Shown in pieces: positions 14,435 to 42,112 of a stretch of 48,865 nt of DNA. Each line of letters begins with the position of its first letter. The first letter of the stretch is position 1. A program made the position numbers and the translations under genes. Source of the DNA: Rickettsiales bacterium (GTDB lineage Bacteria; Pseudomonadota; Alphaproteobacteria; Rickettsiales; SXRF01). Where the stretch lies: the NCBI GenBank assembly GCA_005792635.1, contig SXRF01000091.1, forward strand, positions 1 to 48,865, read 5' to 3'. The notes under the pieces were generated by a model. It did no database searches. It saw nothing but the letters and a program-made list of their open reading frames with translations, and had not been told where the DNA came from.

Positions 14435-16198
14435 TTATACTGGGTTAAATAATCCGCCCGTACGCATCTGATTACGAGTTTCCTCGGCATAAACCATGCG
14501 TACTGAATTTTCCGCTACTTTAGCGACCTGCTCTAACAAGGCTGCATCGTTAACCCCGCGTCCACTGCCACCTTGCGTCATATTGAAAGTATTGTGAACG
14601 GTGAGACCGCCGTTATTTTCTGCAATCTGGTCATAGGGGACGATTGAGCCATTGATATTTGGCACAAAGCGTTCGCGCCCAAATTCACCAACATCATAAC
14701 TCATTCCAGCGAATACACTGCCACCATTGGCACGCGCACCGCCGAAATTAAAAGCAGTTTTTAATGTTCCTGTGATAAAATCATTTAGAGGTTCTGTAAC
14801 CGTCCTACGCAGCGCAATTTTCGCAACATCTTGTGCGAGAGACGCCAGCACTGTGCGGAGTTTTTCGCCTTTAACAACAGCATCTTCAAAAGCTGAGGTG
14901 AAGGTTAACCCTAAATCCTTGGCTGCATCTTTTAACTCGTTATTTTTCTCCGTGGCTTTTTCATATTCATCGCTGGCTTTTTTTAGGGCGCGATTATAGG
15001 TGTCTTGAGAAATTTCACCTGACATTAGAAAATTATCCAGCTTGTTAACTTCCGCCGAATATTTTTCTGCCGCCGTGCGCGTGTCATCATATATTTTTTG
15101 GGCTTCCTTCAACTCTTGATTTTGCTGCTTCTGTGCATCGGAAAGCCCTTTTAGCGCAGGAGGCTGAAAATTTATTTTCCCCTGACTCTTTGGCGGAGAG
15201 ATAGGACTGTAAAAAGTTACGCTTGATGATGTTTGCTCTAATTGTTTATTTAGATTTTCCAATTCTTGTTTATATTTATTATAAACTGCTGGGTCTTGCT
15301 CATCATTAAATGCTTTTTGTAATTTTGTTATGCGCTCAACAAGAAATGCGCGGCGGCGCAGAATCTCTTCCTGTCCGCTTAACTCATCTACAGGGATACG
15401 GAAATCGCTAGCGCGGGTAATCTTGCTCACCCCTTCAACAAATTCATTGAATTTTATGGCTTTGTCATAAGCAAATTCAAAACCATCAACAGCCAGTATT
15501 CTTAATTTTGCCGTAAGCTCTGCTACATGGTCATTATAGGCATCCATTTTTGCAGCTTGTTCTGGCGAAAGCACAAGATTTAGCTCTTTTGCTCGCTCCA
15601 TTGCATTACGAATGCCCTCTGCACCTTCAGAAAACAACGGGGCAAGGCTTGCACCTGATTTACCAAAAATATCCATTAGCGCACGAGTGCGATCAGAGTC
15701 ATCGCCTAATTTACTGATTTGTTCTGCAATGGTTAAAAACTGTTCTTCTGGTGATAGTTTTTTTATGTCAGAAAGCTTTATACCTAATTGTCCAAATATA
15801 TCAGTACCTTCAGATATATTTTTCTGCATTTTATTTATACTTTGTGCGACACTATCAAGGTCTGTTCCGCTTTGGTTGGCGGCAAGAGATAATTTTGATA
15901 ATGTTTCTACAGAAACTCCTGTTTGCTTGCTTAAATCATTAATATGGTCGCCCATGTCAATGGCGGATTTTATAAATCCTGCACTGAAATAAACTGAAGC
16001 AAAGCCTATCAATTTTCCTTTTGCTGTTTCAACAGTTCTTTGTAAATCGTTAAATTGCTTATTTATTAGACCAAGGCTGCGGTTCATCCGTGCTTGCCCG
16101 CTCGCCAACTGGTCACCAGCAGTTTTTACAGCTGCGGTGAATTTATCGGTTTTAAGATCTAAATCTGCGGATAAACTACCTATCTTTTGCGATGGCAT
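14435..16198 (-). CDS. Tape measure protein
   Basis: 587 aa helical protein between chaperones and gpM; IGSLSADL start, RANGG...VGEFGRERFVP, QMRTGGLF end. Confidence 0.92.
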   Translation of the reverse strand: MPSQKIGSLSADLDLKTDKFTAAVKTAGDQLASGQARMNRSLGLINKQFNDLQRTVETAKGKLIGFASVYFSAGFIKSAIDMGDHINDLSKQTGVSVETLSKLSLAANQSGTDLDSVAQSINKMQKNISEGTDIFGQLGIKLSDIKKLSPEEQFLTIAEQISKLGDDSDRTRALMDIFGKSGASLAPLFSEGAEGIRNAMERAKELNLVLSPEQAAKMDAYNDHVAELTAKLRILAVDGFEFAYDKAIKFNEFVEGVSKITRASDFRIPVDELSGQEEILRRRAFLVERITKLQKAFNDEQDPAVYNKYKQELENLNKQLEQTSSSVTFYSPISPPKSQGKINFQPPALKGLSDAQKQQNQELKEAQKIYDDTRTAAEKYSAEVNKLDNFLMSGEISQDTYNRALKKASDEYEKATEKNNELKDAAKDLGLTFTSAFEDAVVKGEKLRTVLASLAQDVAKIALRRTVTEPLNDFITGTLKTAFNFGGARANGGSVFAGMSYDVGEFGRERFVPNINGSIVPYDQIAENNGGLTVHNTFNMTQGGSGRGVNDAALLEQVAKVAENSVRMVYAEETRNQMRTGGLFNPV

Positions 16199-18243: not shown

Positions 18244-20892
18244 TTATACCATTGGTCTGCCGTAAATATAGACATCGGCGGTGGCTGCTGCACCTTGAGC
18301 GGTGGTAAGGCTAAGATATAGCGTGGCAGCATTGAAAGTGTCGGCTTGCCCTGCGGCGGATATTGTCGCTTTTTGGAGCTTGGTTGCCGCGGTGCAGTTG
18401 GCATAAGTTTGTGCCGCTGCAACTATCGCTGTCCCACCCTTTGCTGCGGCTGAATATAATCCACCAGCGGCGTTGGTTAGGCTGGTGCTAGCATTGGTCA
18501 CTGTCATTCCAGTTACTTCATACTTATTCCCGGGGAAAAGAAGGGCTATTGCTTGGTCGGCGGTGGTGTTGAAATTTGCTCCCTTTAGGACGCCAATCAA
18601 AGAGTCTACACCCATAATTGAGACACCAGCATTAGGAACATCCGCTAATGTGTTATCTTTTCCAACACGCCCTTTCAGAATGTCACAAATATTTATTTCG
18701 TTGGAAGCCGTTGGTGATGATGCAATTACTCTATACCCAAACAACCAAACATTATCACCTGTTGTCGTCGCCCCTGTTCCACCATTATAGCCCGCCCCTC
18801 GACCAAAAAAACCACTGTAATCACATGATGTAGCCGATTGCCCCGCCTCATGTCCTAAAGCAGTTGACCAGTTGCCTGTGCAGTTTTTCAAGGCGGCTTG
18901 CCCAAAAGCGGTTAAACCCTGCCCACTTATATTGCTTTTAAGGGCTTGATAACCAAATGCAGTATTGTTGAACCCAACAGTATTAGATGCAAGTGCATCA
19001 TAACCAAAGCCAGCATTAAATGCGCCGCTAGAATCAAACGGACAATTTATTCCAAAATACATTGAGGTTGAGGAAAGAGAAGATGTGCCGAGTAATTTAT
19101 TTCCCCGCACCCATAATTGCCCCTGCATTTCAAAATCATTGGAGAACATGCGCTGGTTTGTTCCGCGCCCCCTGCCAGTTGCCATCAACAGGAAGGAAAA
19201 AATTGTATTGGCAATGTCAGAATAACCAATAACGCTTGGATGCACCCAAGTATCACCGAGATACCCAAGTGCATTAGCCGTATCATAATCTATCCAGCGG
19301 TTAAAAATATCAATCAGCGGAACGCCAGCCGCCGTTGCCGCCGCGCGGACAACATCGCGGTATGTTTGTTGGAATACTGTTGATTGATTATGCGTTCCAT
19401 CCGCTGGATTGGCTGGGTTGCCAGTAAGCACAAGAACATCGCCAACCGTTTTTGCTTGTGCGATAATGGTATCAAGATTAGTGCGGTAAGTGGTTAAATC
19501 AATCGTGCCAGCACACTCGTTAATTCCTGAAGTGATAATCGTCAAATGCGGCGCGGCGGCAATTACCGTTGGCAACCATGAATAAGGCTGACTGCTATCT
19601 ACCCAATCTTGAGAAGCTGTGCCGCCGAGTCCAGCTTTGATTACCTGAACGCATTTACGATTGGATGAATATGCTTCATACCCAATGGTATTGACCTGTC
19701 CACCAGAAACCCACTTTATGTTAAAAGTATGCCCTAAATCAGGTGCTGAAAGCGTAACCGAACCAACGCCTGCCGCCGCATTAGTGTCTATATTAGTAGT
19801 TCCCAGACCATCATAATCAACGCTCAATACCCCACCACCAACTCTCTTAACATACCAAAGTTTGAAAGTATCACAGGGCGTATTTGGCGTTATAGCCATA
19901 GAATTTGTATTAGTTGATGCTTTCCAAGTCGCACCGCCAGCAGATAATATGGTGTTATCTACGCTCCAAGAGCTGCCTTTTACAATTCTAGCATCGGTGA
20001 GATTGAAACCTAAATTGGCGTTATGTGTCGCAGGGGCTGCACCGCTAGTCATCAACATATTGGCTAATTGATGCGCCCATCCCACATCAACTCCGCCGTC
20101 AGTCGTGCTATCACCAAGGACAACGATTCTTGCATTGCCCTGTCCCGCCCGCATCTTGGCAAATGCTGCGGCAAATTTTGGCAACATGGTCGGGGCAAAA
20201 GAACTAGCCAGCTGGATAGCGGAGCTTAATCCGCTACCATCCGCGCCCTTAATATTTGCTGCTATGGAATAAGTCCCTCCACTGCGGAAATAAACATCTC
20301 CAGTGGTGGTTTTAAGATAATAATCACCATCAACCCCCAGCCCATTAGACGGCACACCCGCGCCGCTACGCCACACACTGCCATTTGTTCCGTTTGCACC
20401 AGCCGCGCCAGTAGCACCCTTGATATTCACGACAACTGAATAAGCCCCCGCGCTCCGCAGATATACATCGCTCGTTGTGGTATTGAGATAATAATCACCA
20501 TCCACTCCCAGCACATTAGAGGGAAGCCCAGTTCCGCTTCTCCAAACACTGCCGTTCGTTCCATTAGTTCCATTTGCGCCAGCTGCGCCAGTAGTACCTT
20601 TGATATTCACTACGATTGAATAAGTCCCTGCGGTGCGAAGATAAACATCAGAATTACTTGTATTGAGATAATAATCGCCATTTACGCCAAGGCTATTATC
20701 AGGTGCGCCCGCGCCGCTGCGCCAAATGCTGCCCGCGCCAACAACATTTGCACCAATTGGAATGCCGCCTAGCGTTACGCCATCACCTGTATAAAAAGTG
20801 TTGTTGTCAGTATCACAAACAATTTCGCGTTTAGCAAAAATCTTGGTCATGCGCCCAGCGGTGGTGACCTCTGGAACTTTATAAATTCCCAT
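18244..20892 (-). CDS. Virion fibre/appendage with Mtd-N-like start, collagen-linked repeats and SGNH/GDSL esterase domain
   Basis: EIVCDTDNNTFYTGDGVT start; three repeats; VLGDSTT, GLGG, GINE, DTWVHP SGNH blocks; NTAFGYQAL beta-roll repeats. Confidence 0.75.
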   Translation of the reverse strand: MGIYKVPEVTTAGRMTKIFAKREIVCDTDNNTFYTGDGVTLGGIPIGANVVGAGSIWRSGAGAPDNSLGVNGDYYLNTSNSDVYLRTAGTYSIVVNIKGTTGAAGANGTNGTNGSVWRSGTGLPSNVLGVDGDYYLNTTTSDVYLRSAGAYSVVVNIKGATGAAGANGTNGSVWRSGAGVPSNGLGVDGDYYLKTTTGDVYFRSGGTYSIAANIKGADGSGLSSAIQLASSFAPTMLPKFAAAFAKMRAGQGNARIVVLGDSTTDGGVDVGWAHQLANMLMTSGAAPATHNANLGFNLTDARIVKGSSWSVDNTILSAGGATWKASTNTNSMAITPNTPCDTFKLWYVKRVGGGVLSVDYDGLGTTNIDTNAAAGVGSVTLSAPDLGHTFNIKWVSGGQVNTIGYEAYSSNRKCVQVIKAGLGGTASQDWVDSSQPYSWLPTVIAAAPHLTIITSGINECAGTIDLTTYRTNLDTIIAQAKTVGDVLVLTGNPANPADGTHNQSTVFQQTYRDVVRAAATAAGVPLIDIFNRWIDYDTANALGYLGDTWVHPSVIGYSDIANTIFSFLLMATGRGRGTNQRMFSNDFEMQGQLWVRGNKLLGTSSLSSTSMYFGINCPFDSSGAFNAGFGYDALASNTVGFNNTAFGYQALKSNISGQGLTAFGQAALKNCTGNWSTALGHEAGQSATSCDYSGFFGRGAGYNGGTGATTTGDNVWLFGYRVIASSPTASNEINICDILKGRVGKDNTLADVPNAGVSIMGVDSLIGVLKGANFNTTADQAIALLFPGNKYEVTGMTVTNASTSLTNAAGGLYSAAAKGGTAIVAAAQTYANCTAATKLQKATISAAGQADTFNAATLYLSLTTAQGAAATADVYIYGRPMV
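20245..20735 (-). repeat. Three intragenic ~57-60 aa repeats
   Basis: GSxWRSGxGxPxNxLGVxGDYYLxTxxxDVYxRxxGxYSxxxNIKG three times, joined by GxxGxx triplets. Confidence 0.9.
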
Positions 20893-34146: not shown

Positions 34147-34632
34147 TCACACTGTCCCTTTCGTTTCGTTGTTGACAAATGGCATGATGAGCTGTTTGGC
34201 GATTCGCGCTGCTTGCTCCACATCGTCAATTTCTTTCATCGCTTCTACCGCTTCATTATGCGTAATTCGCTTACCACCATCGGATGTCGCGCTGGTGAAC
34301 AGCAAAACCTTGGCACTGCACTCACCAAGTTCTTTGCTGATTTGTAAAATTTGCTGGGTAATGCTGCGCTTTGGCGCGGTCGGCTCGGGTGCGTGGAAAC
34401 TCCGCATGAAGAATGCGGTGATTGGCGGAATTGCGCCAGTTGCTTCAAAATAGGCTTGGTCAAGCGCGAAACATTGCTGCAAATTCAGCATAAAATCATC
34501 ATCAGGGTCGCTCGCTTTGTAAAGCAAGCTAGCCGATTTCCCCAAAACCTTCGCGCAAGGCTCAACTCCCAGCTCCGCCATAATCAGCGTCATAGCATGA
34601 TGAATAGTGTCAGGAATGCGTGGCTTGCTCAT
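34147..34632 (-). CDS. CII-family regulatory protein
   Basis: HTH CAKVLGKSASLLYKASDPD; KELGE...DGGKRITHNEA; downstream of cro. Confidence 0.65.
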   Translation of the reverse strand: MSKPRIPDTIHHAMTLIMAELGVEPCAKVLGKSASLLYKASDPDDDFMLNLQQCFALDQAYFEATGAIPPITAFFMRSFHAPEPTAPKRSITQQILQISKELGECSAKVLLFTSATSDGGKRITHNEAVEAMKEIDDVEQAARIAKQLIMPFVNNETKGTV

Positions 34633-35108
34633 GCTGCACCACCTTCAGCGTTGGCGGAGGGATTGCCTCCGCCGCTGCCTTCCCCTATAGTTCGGTCGCT
34701 CTGACTAGGAGCAAACAACCAACTAAAAGGAGAATTCAATGTTAGATGATGAGCAAATAGCGAAAGTTGAACGAGTGATAACCCGAGTGATATTAGAACA
34801 AATTGCTGTTGTCGCGCTATCAAGCTTACCAAACGAAGGGAGGCAGAACTTAATGAATCAATTTCAAAATTTTTCTCCTGAGATGTATGGAGCAACTGCT
34901 GAGCAAAAGGCTGGTGTCCAGAAATCTGTTCAGAATTTTTGGAAGGATTTAGACAAAGCACTTTCTCATCATGACCTTCCTCAGTCGGATTAAAAATACC
35001 ACCCCTACGCATCTGGTTACTAGCTTCTTCGGCATAAACCCTACCCACGGAGTTTTCTGCAACTTTGGTAAGTTGCTCCAGCAATTCTTTGTATGATGGT
35101 TCGCTCAT
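34629..35108 (-). CDS. Early protein with N-terminal copy of tape-measure C-terminus
   Basis: ATGA-coupled to cro and cII; residues 9-41 are 25/33 identical to the TMP C-terminus. Confidence 0.8.
   Translation of the reverse strand: MSEPSYKELLEQLTKVAENSVGRVYAEEASNQMRRGGIFNPTEEGHDEKVLCLNPSKNSEQISGHQPFAQQLLHTSQEKNFEIDSLSSASLRLVSLIARQQQFVLISLGLSLVQLSLFAHHLTLNSPFSWLFAPSQSDRTIGEGSGGGNPSANAEGGAA
34663..34691 (+). promoter_or_regulatory. sigma70 promoter antisense to the early lytic operon (PRE-like position)
   Basis: TTGCCT-17 bp-TATAGT upstream of the 84-aa ORF. Confidence 0.7.
34739..34993 (+). CDS. Small helical protein antisense to lytic operon (moron-like)
   Basis: 84 aa; AAGGAG RBS 34727-34732; own promoter. 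Confidence 0.7.
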   Translation: MLDDEQIAKVERVITRVILEQIAVVALSSLPNEGRQNLMNQFQNFSPEMYGATAEQKAGVQKSVQNFWKDLDKALSHHDLPQSD

Positions 35109-35338
35109 TCTAAACCACCTGTGATATTGGAATGGTTAATTGTGGTTAAATGTGGCATATTATTTGCAAACCAGTTCATTACTTTTTGATAGGTTTTTGT
35201 TGTGCATCCACCACCTGCTTCTATGCGGTCAAAGAATTTTCCGTCATTTACGATGGTGGTTGCTAGAGTTGAACGCGCTTTACCTGTCTGCTTGCAATAA
35301 GCATCAGCGGCATTGAGCATATTTTTTGTAAAATCCAT
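35105..35338 (-). CDS. Cro-like repressor
   Basis: Short HTH protein divergent from cI; ARSTLATTIVNDGKFFDRIEAG. Confidence 0.8.
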   Translation of the reverse strand: MDFTKNMLNAADAYCKQTGKARSTLATTIVNDGKFFDRIEAGGGCTTKTYQKVMNWFANNMPHLTTINHSNITGGLE

Positions 35339-35370: not shown

Positions 35371-35449
35371 ATATTCGGTAAATAAACCGTATTTGTCAAC
35401 GGTAATTTTACCTAATGACATAATATTTTTAATTAGGGAAAATCCCGAA
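35371..35449. promoter_or_regulatory. OR region: three operators, PR and PRM
   Basis: TTCGGTAAATAAACCGTA 35374, AACGGTAATTTTACCTAA 35398, TTAGGGAAAATCCCGAA 35433; PR TTGACA-17-GAATAT (minus); PRM ATGACA-17-GAAAAT (plus) 8 nt before cI ATG. Confidence 0.75.
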
Positions 35450-35451
35450 CT

Positions 35452-36096
35452 ATGAAAACAATTCTAAGTCGCGAACAAAAAATAGATTTTATCCAACAAC
35501 GCATGAAAGAGCTTGGGCTTAATCAGCGTAGCGTTGCGCTGTCAGCTGGTCTTCACGAAGATGCGTTACGCAATTTTTTTCGTGGCAAAAGCAAAAATCT
35601 ACGCTCTGATATTTACGAAAAGCTTATGGATGTTTTGCAGCCAAATGAGGAAGTTGTTTTACATTCTCATAAAGGAGAAGAAGAAACCACTCGTATCCCT
35701 GTTTATGACATAAGGGCATCAGCAGGCGGTGGAGTGGTAATTCAAGAAGAAAATATCCTTTATCACACGACATTTAGTTTGGATTTTTTACGGCGGGTGA
35801 GCAGTTCTCCACTGGAAATGCTGTCAGTGATTACTGTGGATGGTGATAGTATGCAGCCCACATTATCACCAGAAGATACTGTGTTGATTGACCGCTCGCA
35901 AATCACTCCCAAAAAAGATGGCATTTATGTTTTGCGTTATGATAATTCTTTGTTGGTAAAGCGTTTAAGCTATGACCCGCAACGGCGCATAGTGACAATT
36001 ATCAGTGATAATGACCGCTACCCACCGCGTGATATTAGCGATCTAGATTGCTTACAAATAATTGGCAGAGTTTTATGGTTAGGGCGCAGGGTATAG
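35452..36096 (+). CDS. CI-like repressor (HTH + S24 autopeptidase)
   Basis: HTH, ASAGGG cleavage site, GDSMQP, LVKRL. Confidence 0.95.
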   Translation: MKTILSREQKIDFIQQRMKELGLNQRSVALSAGLHEDALRNFFRGKSKNLRSDIYEKLMDVLQPNEEVVLHSHKGEEETTRIPVYDIRASAGGGVVIQEENILYHTTFSLDFLRRVSSSPLEMLSVITVDGDSMQPTLSPEDTVLIDRSQITPKKDGIYVLRYDNSLLVKRLSYDPQRRIVTIISDNDRYPPRDISDLDCLQIIGRVLWLGRRV

Positions 36097-36121: not shown

Positions 36122-36967
36122 ATGTCAGAAAATGAAAAATTGATTGTGTTTAACCAAAAATCAATCCGTCGCATTTTGCATAAAAATAAATGGTGGTTTT
36201 CAGTAATTGATGTTGTCGGAGCTTTAACGGATAGTATTGATGCTGGGGCGTATTGGCGCAAGCTAAAACAGCGTCTAAACGAGGAAGAAAGTGAGGTCGT
36301 GACATTTTGTCACGGACTGAAACTAGAAGCATCGGATGGGAAAAAATATGTTACCGATTGCGCCAATACCGAGTCACTTTTTCGCATAATTCAATCAATC
36401 CCTTCTCCCAAAGCTGAGCCTTTTAAGCAATGGTTAGCAAAAGTTGGGTATGAGAGAATCCAAGAAATAGAAGACCCAGAACTAGCAAGTAAGAGAGCAA
36501 AGGCTTTATATAAAGCCAAAGGTTATAGTGAGGATTGGATAGAAAAACGGATGCGGAGCATCGCCATTCGTGAAGAACTTACCGATGAGTGGAAAAATAG
36601 AGGTGTAAAGGAGAGCAAGGAGTTTTCTATACTCACCGCCGAAATTTCCAAAGCAGCGTTTGGAATGCCTCCTTCTGAGTATAAAAAGCATAAAAACCTA
36701 AAGCGAGAAAATCTGCGTGATCATATGAATGATTTAGAGCTAATTTTTTCAATGCTTGGTGAAGCCTCAACCACCGAAATCACTCGCAACAAAGATGCAA
36801 AAGGTTTTCGTGAAAATTATCAAGCTGCACAAGAAGGTGGCAGCATTGCAGGTAATGCCCGCAAGGAGCTTGAAACTAAAAGCGGTCGCCCTGTAATCAG
36901 CAAACAAAATTATTTGCCAAAAACTAAAGGCAAAAGATTGGTAAAAAAACGAGAGGAATTAAAATAG
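36122..36967 (+). CDS. Bro-N domain protein
   Basis: WWFSVIDVV, YWRKLKQRL, RIIQSIPSPKAEPFKQWLA, NLRDHM. Confidence 0.85.
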   Translation: MSENEKLIVFNQKSIRRILHKNKWWFSVIDVVGALTDSIDAGAYWRKLKQRLNEEESEVVTFCHGLKLEASDGKKYVTDCANTESLFRIIQSIPSPKAEPFKQWLAKVGYERIQEIEDPELASKRAKALYKAKGYSEDWIEKRMRSIAIREELTDEWKNRGVKESKEFSILTAEISKAAFGMPPSEYKKHKNLKRENLRDHMNDLELIFSMLGEASTTEITRNKDAKGFRENYQAAQEGGSIAGNARKELETKSGRPVISKQNYLPKTKGKRLVKKREELK

Positions 36968-36980
36968 GAGGTATATATTT

Positions 36981-37583
36981 ATGAAGAAGATTTTATTAAT
37001 ATCCACCCTAACATTGTTAATAGCTTGTAATTCCAATAAGTCCCCTGAACTGAAAAGCCATATTATACCTACTAGGTCATGTAAAATAGTTGATGGATAT
37101 TCAGTTTCAGAAAACTTAGGAAAAAATGCGGTTATAGCTAATAGTCAGAGTAAGGATTGCAACAATATTTCTGCCATTACAGAAGATTGGTTAGTGAATT
37201 GTGAAAATGATATGATAACAGACAAACGCAAATGCAGGATGTCAAGGTTTGACAAAAAATATGGAACAGAACTCGTTCAAGCATTAATTATTCTAAATTC
37301 AGAAAAGGGCAATGTATTATGTATTGGCGAGGAGCATTTCCCCAATAAATCATCTCAAATAAGAATAGATAATAACACTCCATTTACAACTTCAGATAAA
37401 GATGGGTGTTTTTCTTATAAGCCAAGTAAAAATATAATTAATCAATTACTTAGTGGGCAGGAAATAAAAATCCGCTTTTATCAATGGCCATATGATGGGT
37501 ACAAAGATATTAAATTTTTAACATCTGGATTCTCACAGTCATTAAAAACAATGAATGATTTAAGTAAAAGCAATAACTTATAA
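36981..37583 (+). CDS. Lipoprotein in the immunity operon (superinfection-exclusion candidate)
   Basis: MKKILLISTLTLLIAC lipoprotein signal; AT-rich; AGGAGG RBS. Confidence 0.7.
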   Translation: MKKILLISTLTLLIACNSNKSPELKSHIIPTRSCKIVDGYSVSENLGKNAVIANSQSKDCNNISAITEDWLVNCENDMITDKRKCRMSRFDKKYGTELVQALIILNSEKGNVLCIGEEHFPNKSSQIRIDNNTPFTTSDKDGCFSYKPSKNIINQLLSGQEIKIRFYQWPYDGYKDIKFLTSGFSQSLKTMNDLSKSNNL

Positions 37584-40915: not shown

Positions 40916-41968
40916 ATGCCAAAACCCCGCAATAGTGAAAATAAAGGGCTGCCAGTTCGCTGGAAAAAGGCACATGGAGCATATTATTACAATGTTCCTG
41001 TTGGACTTGAGGCGTTATGGGATGGCAAAAAACTTTTTCGCCTTGGGAAAACCCTGCCAGAAGCCTATAAAGAATGGGCAAAGCGGTTAGAAAATTTGGA
41101 TAAAGCCAATACTATTGCACAGTTGCTTGACCGCTATTCATTGGAGGTGATACCCACGAAAGCTATTGCAACTCAAAGCGGAAACGTCCGTGAGATTAAA
41201 AATTTACGAGCGGTTTTTGGACACATGGCACTTACTGCAATTCAGCCACAGGATATTTATAAATATGCCGATAAGCGTGGGGCAAAAAATAGAGGCAGAA
41301 AAGAAATAGCCCTGTTGAGCCACGCATTTACCAAAGCCGTGGAATGGGGATATATCAATCGCCACCCCTTCAAAGGTGAAGTCCGTCTGCAAATTGGAAA
41401 ACCGCGCACCCGCTATATTGAGGATTGGGAATTAAACGAAGCACTATTACTTTCCGCCCCAAAAGAAAAGGGTGGGGTGGCAATGGTGCAAGCATATATC
41501 CAACTCAAACTGATGCTGGGATTGCGTCAGGGAGATATGTTAAGGCTGAAAGAGGCTGATATTCAGGAAGATGGGATTCATGTTACGCCAAATAAAACCA
41601 AAAACAGCACGGGAAAATCTATAATTTACGAATGGAGCGATGATTTACGCCTCGCTGTTGAAAAAGTCAGATCCACCCGCCCACCAGATATTTCAAAATG
41701 GTTATTCTGCGACCGCTTTGGCAAATGCTACATCAACGAAGAAACAGGCAAGGCTGAGGGGTGGTCTTCTATATGGCAAAGATTTATGGAAAGGGTGCTT
41801 GCTGAAACCAAGGTTAAAGATCGTTTTACTGAGCATGATTTACGAGCAAAAGTCGCCAGTGATGCAGTGGATGTTGAGCGGGCGAGGGAATTATTATCAC
41901 ACTCAGACAGTAAAATTACTGAGCGAGTTTATCGCCGAAAAGCAATCATAATTAAGCCGTCAAAATAA
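40916..41968 (+). CDS. int: Prophage tyrosine integrase
   Basis: GLRQGD, NKT, HDLRAK, LSH, RVYRR; adjacent to att/tRNA. Confidence 0.95.
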   Translation: MPKPRNSENKGLPVRWKKAHGAYYYNVPVGLEALWDGKKLFRLGKTLPEAYKEWAKRLENLDKANTIAQLLDRYSLEVIPTKAIATQSGNVREIKNLRAVFGHMALTAIQPQDIYKYADKRGAKNRGRKEIALLSHAFTKAVEWGYINRHPFKGEVRLQIGKPRTRYIEDWELNEALLLSAPKEKGGVAMVQAYIQLKLMLGLRQGDMLRLKEADIQEDGIHVTPNKTKNSTGKSIIYEWSDDLRLAVEKVRSTRPPDISKWLFCDRFGKCYINEETGKAEGWSSIWQRFMERVLAETKVKDRFTEHDLRAKVASDAVDVERARELLSHSDSKITERVYRRKAIIIKPSK

Positions 41969-42037: not shown

Positions 42038-42112
42038 TGGTGGCTCGAGGGGGATTTGAACCCCCGACCAAGGGATTATGATTCCCCTGCTCTACCACTG
42101 AGCTACCGAGCC
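42038..42112 (-). tRNA. tRNA-Met(CAT), probably elongator; contains prophage att
   Basis: GGCTCGGTAGCTCAGTGGTAGAGCAGGGGAATCATAATCCCTTGGTCGGGGGTTCAAATCCCCCTCGAGCCACCA folds as a cloverleaf; G1-C72 pair excludes fMet; Ile2 not fully excluded. Confidence 0.93.

Follow-up and report, generated by a model that had tools for sequence, protein, structure and literature searches.

Open reading frames on both strands between cro and cII

We analysed a stretch of 48,865 nucleotides from a Rickettsiales bacterium (GenBank assembly GCA_005792635.1, contig SXRF01000091.1, positions 1–48,865; hereafter the window), which belongs to a 1.95-Mb genome and carries a siphovirus-type prophage of about 37 kb. Our subject is the immunity region of this prophage, where an 84-codon open reading frame (ORF84; 34739–34993, +) lies antisense to the lytic operon and is nested entirely within a 159-codon frame of the other strand (ORF159; 34629–35108, −). 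A preliminary description of this DNA had read ORF84 as an inhibitor of phage tail assembly and the start of ORF159, which resembles the tape measure protein (TMP), as a decoy for it; the coordinates of ORF84 given there, its nesting in ORF159, its promoter and its ribosome-binding site are all present in the sequence.

The CI-type repressor gene (35452–36096, +), encoding a helix-turn-helix (HTH) and an S24 peptidase domain (Pfam Peptidase_S24, E 2.2e-17; phrog_4, 1e-40), points in the leftward, lysogenic direction, and the cro-like gene (35105–35338, −; phrog_7669, 6e-16) is the first of the rightward, lytic operon. Between them, the intergenic region contains a short palindromic hairpin (35386–35403) with T-runs on both sides, which appears terminator-like on both strands in our scan and may be an operator instead. 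ORF159 follows cro, and is followed in turn by a cII-like gene of the 186/CP76 type (34147–34632, −), which is assigned on marginal grounds (PF06892, 26.1 bits, where the cut-off is 26). The best PHROG match of this gene is phrog_38866 (1.6e-15; function unknown), the CII-like phrog_101 reaches 7e-5, and a genome-wide search for the PF06892 family did not recover it; the label 'cII' is weak and is used here for convenience. A phrog_204 gene and then a DUF2303 gene come next.

ORF84 has a Shine-Dalgarno sequence (AAGGAG, 34727–34732) 6 nt ahead of its ATG and, upstream of this, a sigma-70-like promoter (34663–34691, +) that would be read leftward, convergent with the cro promoter. The promoter, TTGCCT-17-TATAGT, agrees with the consensus at 9 of 12 positions, its −35 element (TTGCCT, 34663–34668) contributing four matches of six and being separated by a 17-nt spacer from the −10 element (TATAGT, 34686–34691). 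The ORF84 leader is predicted to begin with a small hairpin (34698–34712, +; GCUCU-GACUA-GGAGC, with a 5-bp stem and a 5-nt loop), a stem that the computed fold contains. A GC-rich inverted repeat, GGCGGAGG-5-CCTCCGCC (34653–34673), is also predicted to fold; it overlaps the −35 element, where it is an 8-bp inverted repeat and not a set of direct repeats, and on the lytic strand it lies 20 nt upstream of the cII start. Candidate roles for this GC hairpin are those of a tR1-like terminator, of an element that stabilises the RNA and of a protein-binding site. In line with the earlier remark that no CI operator copy lies nearby, no 14-mer of the cI–cro intergenic region recurs with up to two mismatches in 34600–35104, and a search of the region against Rfam returned nothing, its single match being at E 0.95.

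The putative product of ORF84 is an orphan, helical protein. AlphaFold2, run on the single sequence, models a helical bundle with a mean predicted local distance difference test (pLDDT) of 79.8 and a predicted template modelling score (pTM) of 0.49; a Foldseek search of the model against the PDB gave no match at E ≤ 0.001, and the top score in the ESM Atlas, 0.80, is at chance level.

A signal block shared with a related prophage

When the 541-nt region was compared with 61 related genomes, two matched: that of the prophage and a second from its genus (G004). Over 16 kb of G004, similarity to the window is confined to a block of about 78 nt and to the genes for phrog_204 and DUF2303 (68% identity over 1204 nt). 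The block (34679–34757, +; 78% identity, E 1.6e-7 and 2e-7) takes in the −10 element, the leader hairpin, the Shine-Dalgarno sequence, the start and the first codons, and it has the same place and orientation in both prophages. From the −10 element to the Shine-Dalgarno sequence the alignment is ungapped, with 42 of 58 positions identical, and the matches cluster at the functional elements, in the islands CCTATAGT, TCTGACTAGGA and AGGAGAATTC, the second of which is the 5-bp/5-nt hairpin; in G004 this hairpin reads GUUCU-GACUA-GGAAC, one C-G pair being replaced by U-A through a double change. The G004 promoter at the equivalent place is TTTACA-18-TATAGT.

Differences within the block fall 7, 4 and 5 times on codon positions one, two and three of the ORF159 frame, with no third-position bias, and the shared GATGATGAG is read in one frame by the two leftward ORFs, both of which have an in-frame ATG of their own, despite a 1-nt difference in spacing; the lytic-strand reading frame over the same stretch differs between the two phages. 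From these codon-position and frame patterns we infer that the block is kept as the expression signals of a leftward gene and not for a lytic-strand protein.

In G004 the block stands in a locus arranged like that of the window, with a leftward S24 CI gene and a rightward HTH cro-like gene, and it heads a leftward 97-codon ORF (ORF97) that one public annotation calls. ORF97 and ORF84 are unrelated in sequence, and unrelated ORFs behind a common promoter point to exchangeable cargo. No cII-like gene stands beside the promoter in this locus, no TMP-like piece was found in the G004 genome, and a continuous lytic-strand ORF is absent at this place. At the position equivalent to 34653–34673, G004 has a GC-rich hairpin of different sequence and loop length, with an 11-bp stem (z −3.7; G004 stretch L002, 1579–1607), which likewise closely precedes the next early gene.

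Several further features of G004 were recorded. An IS200/IS605-type transposase gene (stretch L009, 9020–9451, which equals L002, 398–829; phrog_2577, 7e-40) lies between its CI and cro-like genes, and its switch may therefore be disrupted. The lytic strand carries an 84-aa ORF and, 2 nt after the stop of this, a 49-aa ORF (L002, 1449–1598, +) with AGGAGA upstream, whose N-terminus is very hydrophobic (Kyte-Doolittle 19-residue maximum 2.78). This 49-aa ORF aligns in frame with residues 104–143 of ORF159 (window 34680–34799, −; 35%, E 0.002), mostly by way of the shared non-coding block. A boxA/boxB (nut-like) reading of the leader hairpin was set aside, as it drew on motifs only and G004 does not support it.

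Searches for further relatives of the locus yielded little. The region had no blastn match among phage records, and DNA patterns of the conserved block were found in no genome contig, in no viral contig and in two metagenome contigs, both of unrelated sequence. The cII protein had no match in genome or viral contigs, and PF06892 gave five weak matches in 401 genomes of the order, none of them above the cut-off. The neighbouring phrog_204 gene was found in 3 of 400 order genomes, in 2 of 401 class genomes and in no viral contig, and these distant loci are laid out differently.

Composition of ORF159 and preference for one strand

ORF159 is joined to both of its neighbours in the same manner. 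Its ATG overlaps the stop codon of the cro-like gene as ATGA (35105–35108), its own stop, TGA, shares a second ATGA with the start codon of the cII-like gene (34629–34632), and at each junction there is an AGGTGGT Shine-Dalgarno sequence. The ORF159 initiation region AGGTGGTTTAGAATGAGCGAACCA (35097–35120, −; AGGTGGT, 5 nt, then ATGAGC...CCA) and the cII initiation region (34621–34644, −) form a 24-nt imperfect direct repeat with 19 identical positions and a spacing of 476 nt, which runs from the final codons of the preceding gene through the ATGA to the fourth codon of the next one (MSEP in ORF159, MSKP in the cII-like gene). With up to two mismatches, the repeat pattern occurs at only these two sites in the whole genome (a reversed-pattern control gave one site), and exact matches to a shorter pattern are likewise confined to these two sites in the window. 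Because the junction sequence (the Shine-Dalgarno sequence, ATGAGC and two more codons) stands at both ends of the 476-bp unit, the repeat suggests that a unit of about this size was inserted at a former cro/cII ATGA junction.

Read from its start, ORF159 consists of MSEP-SYKE, the TMP-like segment, the reverse complement of ORF84, and then the sequence of the Shine-Dalgarno element, leader, promoter and GC hairpin of ORF84, all of which its last 36 codons cross. Its single-sequence AlphaFold2 model is poor (pLDDT 57.4, pTM 0.25), with one N-terminal helix, a disordered stretch at residues 39–84 and one long hydrophobic helix, the pLDDT falling below 50 at 39–84 and in parts of the tail (134–141); leucine, serine and arginine make up 30% of its residues. 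From its composition the frame looks chimeric.

The N-terminal part was compared with the resident TMP gene (14435–16198, −; 587 aa; TMP PHROGs, for example phrog_8462, 1.1e-25). Codons 9–42 of ORF159 (34983–35084, −) are paralogous to the 3′ end of that gene: 25 of their 34 residues (74%) are identical to those of the last 34 TMP codons (14438–14539, −; E 7e-14), and the match was found independently at the DNA level in a genome search (74%, E 2.3e-11). The TMP-like stretch that the preliminary description reported is thus real, and its statement that ORF84 stops where this stretch ends holds closely, the stop codon (34991–34993) falling four codons short of the end. At the DNA level the two copies share 73 of 102 nt, and the 29 differences are distributed 8, 3 and 18 over the three codon positions, giving a proportion of synonymous differences (pS) of 0.80, which is saturated, and of non-synonymous differences (pN) of 0.13. 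Non-synonymous changes account for 10 of the 29 differences, compared with about 65% expected under neutral drift of one copy after an internal duplication (P 7e-4). By these measures the segment is a genuine paralogue with conservation at the protein level, which would reflect either selection on the peptide or recent capture from the diverged TMP gene of another phage.

Only these 34 residues match, at the extreme C-terminus of the resident TMP, and ORF159 has no TMP PHROG or Pfam match; its N-terminus is, by comparison of sequences, a copy of a TMP fragment and not a TMP. The 48-aa N-terminus had no match in 50,697 phage records, matched its own genome only among 44 genomes of the family, and matched two of 401 order genomes, its own and one with a match of E 0.006 inside a 317-aa ORF without phage context, which we take as chance. 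Residues 1–48 also found nothing among longer proteins, in a search weak enough to miss the resident TMP itself. The C-terminal 110 residues of the TMP matched eight Vibrio phage records over residues 17–75 only, not over the last 34, and the phage, family and order genome searches found neither a closer TMP nor a free-standing copy of the 34-residue motif. Antisense pairing between the 3′ region of ORF84 and TMP mRNA was rejected, because identity is 72%, the longest exact run is 12 nt and the differences lie at third codon positions.

Codon and dicodon models were trained on 717 long ORFs of the genome, and the margin of the coding state over the best shadow state was expressed in nats. True gene pieces of 84 codons have a mean of +29.4 (5th percentile +15.6), and 1731 shadow stretches have a mean of −28.1 (95th percentile −12.1). 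The ORF84 margin of +6.7 is above the shadow 95th percentile, and ORF84 is preferred to the opposite frame by 6.7–8.5 nats with dicodons and, in the codon model, by about 12 nats on its own triplets. In ORF159, codons 1–42 score as coding (+15 nats) and codons 43–123, which overlap ORF84, score −8.5. In G004 the margin of ORF97, +34 nats, is in the range of real genes, and that of the lytic-strand 84-aa ORF is +0.6. Judged by these scores, ORF97 is a clear gene, and in the overlap ORF84 is favoured over ORF159, both being atypical.

In the register of ORF84 and ORF159 first codon positions are opposed, which is the most stop-prone of the three antisense registers in the genome, with open runs of 19 codons on average. 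When synonymous codons of ORF84 were permuted or redrawn so that its protein stayed the same, the ORF159 frame was open in 0.11–0.75% of trials (P 0.001–0.007); a plain shuffle of the 107-nt ORF159 tail left it open in 17%. Among control pieces of 84 codons, 2.2% from host genes and 1.1% from phage genes are fully open in this register. The lytic-strand frame has probably been kept open by selection, for which continued translation from cro to cII would be the simplest reason. Together with the ATGA junctions, this openness fits the earlier proposal that the rest of ORF159 is read-through that maintains coupling to cII. Beyond the TMP-like segment ORF159 looks like read-through rather than a normal protein, given dicodon scores on the side of the shadow state, a poor AlphaFold2 model and a tail that crosses the promoter and hairpin. 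A Rho-loading signature on lytic-strand RNA across ORF84 was mild only (C/G 1.29, with windows up to 1.75) and was not used.

Interpretation and comparison with known systems

We propose that the locus holds a cassette of about 476 bp between cro and the 186-type cII, with an orphan leftward gene behind a promoter in the PRE position; a chimeric frame, coupled at both ends and opening with a copy of the TMP 3′ end, would run across it on the lytic strand. In the lytic direction the inserted unit would comprise this 102-nt copy, the reverse-complemented 84-codon gene, its Shine-Dalgarno sequence, leader and promoter, and the GC hairpin. ORF84, which is probably a real gene, would be transcribed leftward, towards cI, from a promoter in the position of lambda PRE and 186 pE, and because of its convergent position the transcript would be made under PR repression or would compete with PR; it may continue towards cI. 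Our guess is that ORF84 is cargo carried by the lysogenic transcript. ORF159 would be the frame that takes ribosomes on from cro across the inserted unit, from the duplicated cII-type initiation site to the cII start codon, and it would be kept free of stops for the sake of translation to cII, through coupling and avoidance of polarity, and not for residues 43–159 as a protein. The 34 TMP-like residues at its N-terminus would have one of the two explanations given above, a selected peptide or a recent capture.

We hold this proposal with a confidence that falls somewhat short of even, because it draws on a single comparator genome, and a number of results weigh against it. ORF84 had no match among 1.84 billion representative proteins, none among 5.8 billion word-indexed clusters and none in phage records (tblastn); it is absent from the public protein collection, and no pipeline can therefore have called it there. 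Its dicodon margin lies under the 5th percentile of real genes, its 'recognition' value in the ESM Atlas (2244) is just below the mark reached by 91% of known proteins, and the match of its promoter to consensus is by itself at chance level (8 such sites per 2.5 kb, compared with 6.1 ± 2.9 in shuffles), the promoter being credible because it is conserved in the block shared with G004. No terminator was found 3′ of ORF84, nor any terminator-like site between ORF84 and the cro–cI intergenic region. Two DNA sequencing runs, from one study, and no RNA run contain the locus; both DNA runs are identical to the window, and there were thus no variants to analyse. The insertion model rests on one imperfect 24-nt repeat, and no relative with an uninterrupted cro–cII junction was found by the cII protein searches or by PF06892 in the 401 order genomes.

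The open-frame statistics are likewise double-edged. In the reverse test, with codons 43–123 of ORF159 taken as the gene, the ORF84 frame is open in 1.8–3.1% of trials, and in G004 the frame opposite ORF97 is open for 73 codons (P 0.012–0.017, with 4.4–5.5% in controls; reverse test 38%). The window was flagged for its long overlapping ORFs, which inflates its P-values; G004 was not selected for an open frame. Such openness in both directions leaves some room for real lytic-strand coding, with or without coding of the leftward strand as well.

That ORF159 is the sole real gene, an early protein with a TMP-like N-terminal helix, and ORF84 its shadow, appears unlikely to us but is the likeliest of the alternatives. 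On this view the conserved block would act in regulation, as an RNA element or a PRE/pE-like promoter, and its Shine-Dalgarno-like AGGAG and its ATG would be there by chance. ORF159 has a strong Shine-Dalgarno sequence and ATGA coupling at each end, it is the frame that the public protein collection holds (a singleton, under three sources), its openness given ORF84 is improbable (0.001–0.007) and that of ORF84 given ORF159 less so (0.018–0.031), and ORF84 has no homologue. However, ORF159 has none either outside the 34 TMP-like residues, where searches returned only itself; its codons 43–123 score below the shadow state, its model drops below a pLDDT of 50 in the stretches named above, and its last 36 codons overlie the promoter, the leader hairpin and the GC hairpin. 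In addition, the shared block lacks a third-position bias in the ORF159 frame, part of it is read in another frame in G004, and G004 has no continuous lytic-strand ORF here.

Marginally less probable still is that the leftward promoter is purely one of establishment, an analogue of PRE or pE sending an anti-cro transcript into cI, with ORF84 and residues 43–159 of ORF159 both non-functional. The geometry fits: sited between cro and cII, the promoter converges with PR and faces cI. In phage 186, CII made from pR activates pE, which expresses CI (PMC8538670), and pR and pE are convergent (PMC7708051). The lack of a terminator-like site from ORF84 as far as the cro–cI intergenic region and the unrelatedness of the downstream ORFs in the two phages agree with this as well. 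It accounts poorly, however, for the retention in both phages of a Shine-Dalgarno sequence and an in-frame ATG, for the normal gene score of ORF97, and for a promoter kept in G004 where the locus has no cII-like gene; no CII half-sites were identified, in a search made without a 186 consensus for comparison, and the hairpin at 35386–35403 (+) is a terminator-like structure ahead of cI.

True antisense dual coding, in which ORF84 and ORF159, and in G004 ORF97 and the lytic-strand 84-aa and 49-aa ORFs, would all be functional, we regard as improbable. It gains from an opposite frame open over 73–84 codons in both phages in the most stop-prone register, from overlap scores that place neither frame squarely with genes or with shadows (+6.7 and −8.5), from good Shine-Dalgarno sequences on both window ORFs, and from the G004 49-aa ORF, which closely follows the 84-aa ORF with AGGAGA upstream. 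Against this, none of four ORFs has a homologue, the lytic-strand ORFs of the two phages are unrelated save for the shared non-coding block, ordinary control genes are equally open 1–5% of the time, and two genomes only are involved, one of them picked for the feature. Its extension to a conserved dual-coding module of the lysis–lysogeny switch, whose lytic product would open with a selected mimic of the TMP C-terminus and act as an early decoy or regulator against a tail-directed leftward gene, seems to us very improbable.

The reading of the preliminary description, that ORF84 is an inhibitor expressed in the lysogen which binds the TMP C-termini of superinfecting phages and that the ORF159 N-terminus is a self-TMP decoy supplied by PR upon induction, a mimicry-based version of Tab/anti-Tab, found no support in homologues or in co-occurrence. 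The TMP similarity is real and conserved at the protein level, the motif is found nowhere else (50,697 phage records, 43 other family genomes and 400 other order genomes, with the one chance match), and precedents exist for a TMP C-terminus linked to targeting in the Tab system (PMC10884400) and for a defence gene oriented in opposition inside a lytic operon in phi80 (PMC11364771). But the preliminary description itself gave a lack of conservation of ORF84 as grounds for refutation, and ORF84 proved not to be conserved in the proteins searched. ORF84 is an orphan without a match in PADLOC 2.0.0 (2023, which may predate Tab), Pfam or PHROGs; among 44 family genomes it found itself and one weak match (E 1e-3, 31% over 60 aa, inside a 269-aa frame of genome G012). 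Nor does the pair co-occur in the one relative available, because the promoter and leader in G004 precede a different ORF and no TMP-like piece was found there. Known antidotes, anti-Tab and Ati, are late-operon binders of the defence protein and not copies of the target; an early, free TMP C-terminal peptide could equally disturb the phage's own tail assembly, and the same pattern of divergence is expected from simple capture of a diverged TMP fragment. A predicted complex of ORF84 with the last 60 TMP residues scored 0.01 against a mark of 0.34, which carries no verdict. Taken together, these points make the inhibitor–decoy reading hardly credible, and the alternative offered beside it, a PRE-equivalent promoter with unrelated cargo, fits the data better.

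A more likely candidate than ORF84 for a lysogen-expressed defence gene, as judged by sequence similarity, is that of a Bro-N protein directly downstream of cI (36122–36967, +), which matches the PADLOC candidate defence model PDC-S13 over its full length (E 2e-125; Bro-N, 8e-12). The third gene in the cI direction (36981–37583, +) encodes 200 residues with a lipoprotein-like N-terminus (phrog_11231, 2e-22) and a weak IalB-family match (E 0.005) that is below the cut-off. Further on, a tyrosine integrase gene (40916–41968, +) adjoins a tRNA-Met gene (42038–42112, −); the attachment site is likely to lie here, at what would be the prophage's right end. The tail genes include those of a J-like central tail fibre, the TMP, a major tail protein and a tail terminator, and an 882-aa protein of the tail region (18244–20892, −; phrog_15881 tail protein) contains a GDSL lipase/acylhydrolase domain (PF13472, 3.8e-16); a replication initiator gene is also present.

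Should the cassette proposal be true, an opposite-strand gene has been inserted in an early lytic operon exactly at the cro/cII junction, and the resulting problem of polarity has apparently been solved by a stop-free frame coupled through ATGA at both ends of the insert. The frame would then be under selection to stay open while its protein is not selected, a situation known to confound searches for overlapping genes. A structural-gene fragment, the TMP 3′ end, can evidently stand in frame in an early operon, and its saturated synonymous sites, combined with 74% amino-acid identity, raise the question of whether fragments of this kind ever serve as mimics. Annotation pipelines pick ORF159 and overlook ORF84; the reverse choice has at least an equal chance of being correct.

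In the portions of the literature available to us, no paper was found that describes a TMP decoy or mimic, or antisense overlapping genes at cro/cII. The overlapping genes of E. coli O157:H7 reportedly include a long ORF fully inside an ORF of the opposite strand, each with its own signals, on the basis of RNA-seq and ribosome profiling (PMC9927249); nesting and signals are similar here, where the arrangement is known from sequence. Tab of Pseudomonas phage JBD26 is expressed constitutively from the prophage, leaves the invading phage with tailless progeny and recognises the TMP, whose C-terminus is linked to sensitivity, and anti-Tab, a late-operon protein whose gene lies between the terminase genes, binds Tab and gives self-protection in the lytic cycle (PMC10884400). 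Only the TMP theme is common to that system and the present locus; the candidate decoy here would be made from an early operon between cro and cII and is a copy of the TMP and not a separate binder.

With the noncontiguous operon of phi80 the locus shares its opposite-strand geometry. There the tai gene, which has its own promoter, faces against the Q-controlled late operon that surrounds it, Tai is a 26-kDa protein with homologues, and a separate downstream gene of the same operon encodes Ati, which binds Tai; the available portion of the report describes no overlap of coding frames (PMC11364771). ORF84 with its own promoter is opposed inside a lytic operon in the same way, antisense to lytic transcription, but the operon here is early, and ORF84 is fully overlapped by an open frame.

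Lambda PRE and 186 pE lie between cro and cII and depend on CII, whose binding sites flank a poor −35 element. The promoter at 34663–34691 has this position too, convergent with PR and directed towards cI, with a 186-type cII-like gene adjoining; unlike those promoters, it has a fair −35 element and is followed by a Shine-Dalgarno sequence and an 84-codon ORF, and its G004 copy has no adjacent cII. Morons are independently transcribed cargo genes in prophages. ORF84 resembles them as a small orphan with its own promoter and atypical codon statistics, and at its place the ORF behind the shared promoter differs between two related phages; it departs from them in having no terminator that we could find and in standing antisense within an operon, overlapped by a coupled frame. 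The locus is thus best described as a variant of known arrangements, the moron, the noncontiguous operon and the establishment promoter.

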